DNA of 64,000 bases from Escherichia coli (lineage in GTDB: Bacteria; Pseudomonadota; Gammaproteobacteria; Enterobacterales; Enterobacteriaceae), in NCBI RefSeq assembly GCF_003334815.1, contig NZ_QOWO01000006.1; one strand, 5' to 3'. The position numbers were made by a program, and so were the translations under genes. Shown piece after piece: positions 425 to 535 of this stretch. The notes beneath the pieces were generated by a model. It saw only the letters and a list, made by a program, of their open reading frames with translations, had not been told where the DNA came from and made no database searches. The first letter of the stretch is position 1. The number at the start of each line of letters is the position of its first letter.

Positions 425-535
425 TAAAAAGAATTCAGAATCAGGCCGGAGTGCTAAATACTCCGTAAACACGGTCGTACATCCAGCCGGTAGCCTGATT
501 CCTTGCATTGAGTGATGTACGGAGTTTATAGAGCA

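Follow-up and report, generated by a model that had tools for sequence, protein, structure and literature searches.

The iscR–iscS spacer of an Escherichia coli genome matches the known iscR stability element and carries a predicted RyhB pairing site over the iscS start

The window, by which we mean the whole 64,000-nucleotide stretch of Escherichia coli DNA analysed here, begins inside iscR and runs on the same strand into iscS. Its first 3 kb (1–3000) match the iscR-iscS-iscU-iscA-hscB region of E. coli K-12 MG1655, and that of several other strains, at 100% identity. This region was found in 5426 of 5426 complete E. coli genomes, at an identity of at least 95% in all but one. The iscR frame closes with tandem stops, a TAA at 422–424 followed by an in-frame TAA at 425–427, and between it and iscS lies an intercistronic spacer of 111 nt (425–535). 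A sequence-only reading of this DNA had given the limits of the spacer, the arms of a hairpin (CGGAG at 447–451 and CTCCG at 461–465), the Shine-Dalgarno (SD) sequence GGAG and the iscS ATG, and all of these positions proved exact. An in-frame GTG (512) and ATG (515) occur 7–8 codons 5′ of the annotated iscS ATG, within hairpin 3. The features of the locus are collected in Table 1.

Table 1. Genes, structural elements and predicted RyhB contacts at the iscR–iscS junction, in window coordinates
Feature	Coordinates	Strand	Basis and remarks
iscR, 3′ part	1..424	+	window begins within the gene; ORF 17..424; TAA stop 422-424; 100% identical to K-12 iscR
iscRS 'iscR stability element' (Rfam RF01517)	425..534	+	138.1 bits against a gathering score of 40; E = 6.7e-36
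A-rich single-stranded leader UAAAAAGAAUUCA	425..437	+	P(unpaired) ~0.95 in 300-700 context; A-rich in 58/58 orthologues
Outer helix	432-436 / 522-526	+	Rfam consensus; 5′ strand inside the A-rich leader; weakly supported
Core protective stem-loop	438..501	+	P2 stem carrying hairpins 1 and 2
P2, perfect 9-bp stem GAAUCAGGC / GCCUGAUUC	438-446 / 493-501	+	Rfam consensus and covariation
Hairpin 1, CGGAGU / ACUCCG, loop GCUAAAU	447..465 (447-452 / 460-465)	+	sequence and Rfam structure; stacked on P2
Hairpin 2, ACACGG / CCGGU, 12-nt loop	469..491 (469-474 / 487-491)	+	Rfam consensus structure
Hairpin 3, U.CAU / AUG.A	504..519	+	Rfam structure; overlapped, at its loop and 3′ strand, by the distal portion of the predicted RyhB site
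Predicted RyhB pairing site	510..539	+	best interaction in 300-760; with RyhB 39-68; spans SD and AUG
Predicted duplex helix GAGUGAUG	510-517	+	with RyhB 61-68
iscS Shine-Dalgarno GGAG	521-524	+	read directly from the sequence; 11 nt 5′ of ATG
Predicted duplex helix GGAGU	521-525	+	SD; with RyhB 53-57
Predicted duplex helix GAGCAAUG	531-538	+	contains AUG; with RyhB 40-47
iscS CDS	536..1750	+	ATG 536-538; 404-aa product; annotated cysteine desulfurase in matching genomes

When the whole window was compared with Rfam using cmscan, the spacer returned a match to RF01517 that covers model positions 1–110 of 110, the window coordinate being the model position plus 424. The match is in sense orientation and falls between the iscR stop and the iscS ATG (gene annotation was taken from identical genomes). 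The iscR stability element of the iscRSUA mRNA was reportedly described in E. coli K-12 by Desnoyers et al. in 2009 (EMBO J 28:1551). Other Rfam matches over threshold in the window are all known E. coli small RNAs, namely ryfA (7909–8212, minus strand, 315 bits), IS128 RNA (8344–8552, minus strand, 262 bits) and sroE (21381–21472, plus strand, 117 bits).

The spacer also folds more stably than its composition predicts. Its minimum free energy (MFE) is −31.5 kcal/mol, compared with −22.3 ± 3.0 for dinucleotide shuffles (z = −3.08; 3 of 200 shuffles are as good), and the core at 438–500 folded alone gives −23.1 kcal/mol. In the computed fold, the stem-loop at 438–501 stays intact when 510–539 is forced to be single-stranded, mimicking bound RyhB.

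These observations change how the most visible motif of the spacer is to be understood. The sequence-only reading had described CGGAG/CTCCG as a small hairpin. The hairpin is real, with a stem of 6 bp, one more than was noted (U452–A460), and a 7-nt loop. It does not stand alone, however, being the apex of a branched structure of about 95 nt raised on the 9-bp P2 stem. A hairpin of 5–6 bp by itself is not beyond chance; we accept this one because of the z-score of the spacer fold, the full-length RF01517 match and the retention of its pairing in 58 orthologues. Hairpin 1 is part of the upstream protective structure and is not the RyhB site, as RyhB pairs about 45–75 nt downstream of it. The A-rich leader ahead of P2 (425–437) could serve as an Hfq (ARN)n site.

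To compare the helices across species we collected orthologous spacers using a plain DNA pattern, 18 bases from the loop of hairpin 2 (CGGTCGTACATCNAGCCGG), with one genome per species. The 78 loci obtained include about 61 Enterobacteriaceae iscR–iscS spacers, and about 17 chance matches in unrelated phyla were left out. Citrobacter, Salmonella, Klebsiella, Raoultella, Enterobacter, Kluyvera, Kosakonia, Phytobacter, Trabulsiella, Leclercia, Lelliottia, Pluralibacter and E. albertii are among the sources, and 58 distinct Enterobacteriaceae spacers were aligned with MAFFT. Across the alignment the Rfam structure is paired in 96.1% of cells, against 31–49% when the partners are slid by 1–3 columns. 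Double-sided changes occupy 63 cells, compared with 19 ± 5 in shuffles, and none of 500 shuffles reaches 63.

This signal comes from the inner part of the structure, where seven pairs of P2 and hairpin 1 carry compensatory changes. P2 is paired in 100% of cells, and three of its pairs have changed in concert (AU/GC, UA/CG), for example from A–U to G–C in eight species. Hairpin 1 is paired in 98.9% of cells, and four of the six pairs carry compensatory changes; its size varies from 15 to 23 nt among orthologues. Both helices are recovered independently by RNAalifold. Single-sequence folding is less clear for P2, which is complete in 27 of 58 MFE structures computed with flanks and has a pair probability of at least 0.5 in 58 of 58 sequences trimmed to the core. 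The flanked folds lose part of the stem to a competing pairing between its 3′ strand and the SD region; given the ambiguity of this check, we relied on covariation for P2.

The remaining helices behave differently. The outer helix (432–436/522–526) is paired in 80.7% of cells, one of its pairs can form in just 17 of 58 sequences, it shows 0 compensatory changes, and it is present in 9 of 58 single-sequence MFEs. Hairpin 2 is invariant in the alignment; it belonged to the search pattern, so its conservation is uninformative. The stem of hairpin 3 is likewise invariant in the 58 species and hence offers no covariation evidence either way. Judged by the alignment, the inner stem and hairpin 1 of the Rfam model are well supported and the outer helix poorly.

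Variation among close relatives can be followed at the same positions. Within E. coli, polymorphism in the spacer peaks at the apex of hairpin 1 (450–461), and A497G is also found; a 131-nt region containing the spacer is just 90–95% identical in 1915 of 5425 genomes. Pairing is kept despite this apex variation, through changes from U–A to C–G and from A–U to G–U. In E. coli N96 (NZ_CM169999.1, 1–60) and AR_0017, the sequence diverges over the iscR end and the 5′ portion of the spacer and is Citrobacter-like (GTTAGG..AAAGATAA.AAGATATTAGAATCAGG), with no overlapping iscR CDS in the stretch shown, and this divergent part may derive from recombination. The spacer in an uncultured Klebsiella metagenome-assembled genome (592–712) is without CAATG, the iscS start codon included (GAGTTTAAGAGAAATTACCG), which is probably an assembly error on a short metagenome contig.

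The competition for the 3′ strand of P2 may bear on how the iscS start is exposed. In the 300–700 context the SD (521–524) has a predicted unpaired probability of 0.01, that is, it is paired 99% of the time, and the AUG is 92% open. Candidate partners for the SD are the outer helix strand at 432–436, a UCC at 500–502 that extends hairpin 3, and an ACUCC at 561–565. The last corresponds to iscS codons 9–10; a synonymous-site comparison found most early iscS codons invariant in these species.

Such pairing could be taken to mean that the spacer is a bistable anti-SD switch, in which the 3′ strand of P2 together with CC (~491–502) pairs either with 438–446 or with 520–526 plus 531–536. The spacer would then be mainly a translational repressor or switch for iscS, and mRNA protection would be secondary. 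This possibility is compatible with the main explanation, and we consider it unlikely. The near-complete predicted pairing of the SD counts in its favour. The anti-SD helix around hairpin 3 becomes the MFE structure of K-12 and of orthologues once the 5′ strand of P2 is blocked, and it is the unconstrained MFE in some orthologues, but in K-12 the P2 fold is better by about 5 kcal/mol (−31.5 versus −26.3) and a mismatch (A at 492) weakens the alternative. Across the 58 species, 97.6% of cells allow the 13 alternative pairs to form, compared with 31–43% for slid controls, a contrast inflated by the derivation of this helix from the same highly similar sequences. Two variable positions in the 3′ strand of P2 (A/G and U/C) fit both partners in all natural variants. 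Nevertheless, the anti-SD helix is without any double-sided change, because its 3′ partner is invariant, and the shuffle control is uninformative for it (500/500), whereas P2 carries true compensatory changes that count against the switch. From these folding models, it seems quite improbable that ~491–502 is a dual-partner strand, engaging 438–446 or the iscS SD-to-AUG segment, and that the spacer would be a switch setting basal iscS translation, and possibly RyhB access, as opposed to just a decay barrier.

Far less tenable is the idea that the hairpin acts in intrinsic termination or attenuation, so that some transcripts would stop after iscR, which we regard as very improbable. A stable stem-loop does lie directly 3′ of the stop codon, and RNA carrying iscR alone has been described (PMC11572966), but no U-tract follows hairpin 1 (UAAACAC) or P2 (CUUGCAU), and the published iscR fragment arises from RyhB- and RNase E-dependent processing, not from termination (PMC11572966, PMC12533949). 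A terminator scan of 300–700 gave 0 sites. A promoter scan of the same interval found none, and an internal iscS promoter was dropped on that ground.

That the hairpin arose as a palindrome by chance, or as a REP/BIME copy, and has no specific role is scarcely credible: 5-bp hairpins are common by chance and the GC-rich stem resembles REP, but the full-length family match counts against both, and the reading is refuted by a stem preserved through compensatory changes across genera and within E. coli and by a spacer that is single-copy (each of 5425 genomes has its 131-nt region at exactly one place), where REP/BIME elements have many copies per genome. With no promoter-like or terminator-like site in 300–700 and a single-copy spacer, a terminator, an internal promoter and a REP element are therefore excluded.

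We consider the spacer to be, very probably, the known RF01517 element combined with a site where RyhB targets the iscS translation initiation region, an arrangement that has already been described. The sequence-only reading had judged the spacer consistent with the known RyhB/iscRSUA arrangement, and the RF01517 match, the presence of ryhB, the position of the best duplex on the SD and AUG, and later papers all agree with it. Host ryhB was looked for directly. The 90-nt RyhB sequence used here matches Rfam RF00057 and agrees at 100% identity with the annotated ryhB of K-12, which sits at 3.58 Mb with yhhX and yhhY on either side. Of 5426 complete E. coli genomes, 5425 carry the gene. A statement on ryhB in PMC3896431 was rejected, given this position in K-12 and the trans-encoded nature of the gene.

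Unrestricted RNAduplex-type folding of RyhB against 380–620 produced a meaningless full-length duplex of 88 nt (−55.7) and was replaced by a purpose-written windowed search, in which opening energies were taken from RNAplfold-type unpaired probabilities. This accessibility-corrected search found the favourable duplex overlapping 500–545 that had been suspected and could not be confirmed from the mRNA sequence by itself. The duplex at 510–539 has a hybrid energy of −22.7 and opening costs of 7.6 (mRNA) and 3.3 (RyhB), giving a net −11.8 kcal/mol. The hybrid energy of 500–545 with RyhB 30–75 is −25.9, against −15.1 ± 3.2 for shuffles, and 1 in 1000 shuffles reaches it, whether the target or RyhB is shuffled. 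Among 629 tiles of 200 nt on both strands of the 64-kb window, the iscS site ranks about 10th (z ~ −2.4), and its 8-mer seed GAGCAATG has one occurrence compared with 3.3 expected. The RyhB duplex is favourable, lies on the SD and AUG, and is conserved; energy alone would not single out the iscS site.

Elsewhere on the plus strand, predicted RyhB duplexes at the yfgM/bamB junction (23325–23351; net −15.1) and in the interior of hscA (4114–4142; net −14.5, hybrid −29.2) score above the iscS site, and both may be due to chance. Another, at 3066–3093 (plus strand; net −10.5), lies just 5′ of the hscA start, near BS1/BS2 of hscBA (PMC12533949).

Conservation refines the extent of the iscS site. 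Its core at 519–538 (GUACGGAGUU...AGAGCAAUG) is unchanged among 57 of the 58 Enterobacteriaceae spacers, and the sites of the 58 species, hybridised with E. coli RyhB, give −19 to −25 kcal/mol. The distal helix at 510–517 is not conserved, and GAAGCGAUG stands there in about half of the species. In the duplex model, the core RyhB interaction is probably 521–538. More broadly, the segment from about 503 to the AUG (503–538) is almost invariant across the 58 species, a pattern that points to sequence-specific recognition beyond structure alone.

Our own results cover the identity of the locus, its Rfam membership, covariation in the stem-loop, ryhB occurrence, and where the predicted duplex lies, how strong it is and how well it is conserved. 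The dependence on RyhB and RNase E, the stability of the iscR fragment and the dependence of that stability on structure are taken from published work, namely that of Desnoyers et al. in 2009 as recounted in later papers. RyhB pairs between iscR and iscS and brings about RNase E-dependent decay of the 3′ part of the transcript, while the 5′ iscR part is kept stable by a stabilising structure and goes on to be translated (PMC11572966). The same paper reports that overexpressed RyhB reduces iscS-gfp threefold and cuts full-length iscRSUA mRNA by 90%. RyhB-dependent accumulation of iscR has been attributed to the intergenic structure, and the iscS_iscR intergenic region is enriched 17-fold in a RyhB pull-down (MAPS) (PMC12533949). 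The iscS ribosome-binding site is bound by RyhB (PMC3089445).

Read together with these reports, the features of the spacer suggest the following course of events. In iron starvation, Fur repression would be lifted and RyhB, made from its distant locus, would accumulate. RyhB and Hfq would pair over the iscS Shine-Dalgarno and AUG (~510–539, core 521–538), iscS translation would halt, and the transcript's iscSUA segment would be degraded via RNase E. Decay moving back toward iscR would be blocked by the branched stem-loop at 438–501, formed by the 9-bp P2 with hairpins 1 and 2. The iscR-only fragment would persist and be translated, and apo-IscR would then activate suf.

The element is a textbook case of sRNA-driven discoordinate expression inside one operon, whereby iron starvation cuts the iron-consuming IscS, IscU and IscA while IscR is still made and, as apo-IscR, switches on Suf. 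Its confirmation here is biologically nothing new. It shows that the sequence-only reading recognised a real regulatory element, and what it adds is an independent test, by comparison, of which Rfam-model helices hold up.

Compared with the RF01517 iscRS element of the E. coli iscRSUA mRNA, the spacer shares locus, strand, length and structure, and its sequence is identical to that of K-12. We see no substantive difference, save that covariation in our alignment backs the inner helices (P2 and hairpin 1) and leaves the outer one weakly supported. The predicted pairing also resembles that of RyhB on sodB and at the hscA SD site, where the single-stranded core of RyhB (nt ~37–68) likewise lies over the SD and AUG (PMC12533949). 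In all of these cases translation is blocked and RNase E-dependent decay is triggered. In isc the target is a cistron inside the operon, which makes decay discoordinate: the structured spacer spares the cistron upstream. A second parallel is Spot 42 on galETKM, which also acts at the ribosome-binding site of an internal cistron, with upstream genes still expressed (PMC3089445). The outcomes differ in that Spot 42 on galK leaves galET translated, whereas RyhB on iscS leads to degradation of iscSUA and yields a stable iscR transcript (PMC3089445). Of these two systems, it is the isc operon alone that involves a structured spacer.
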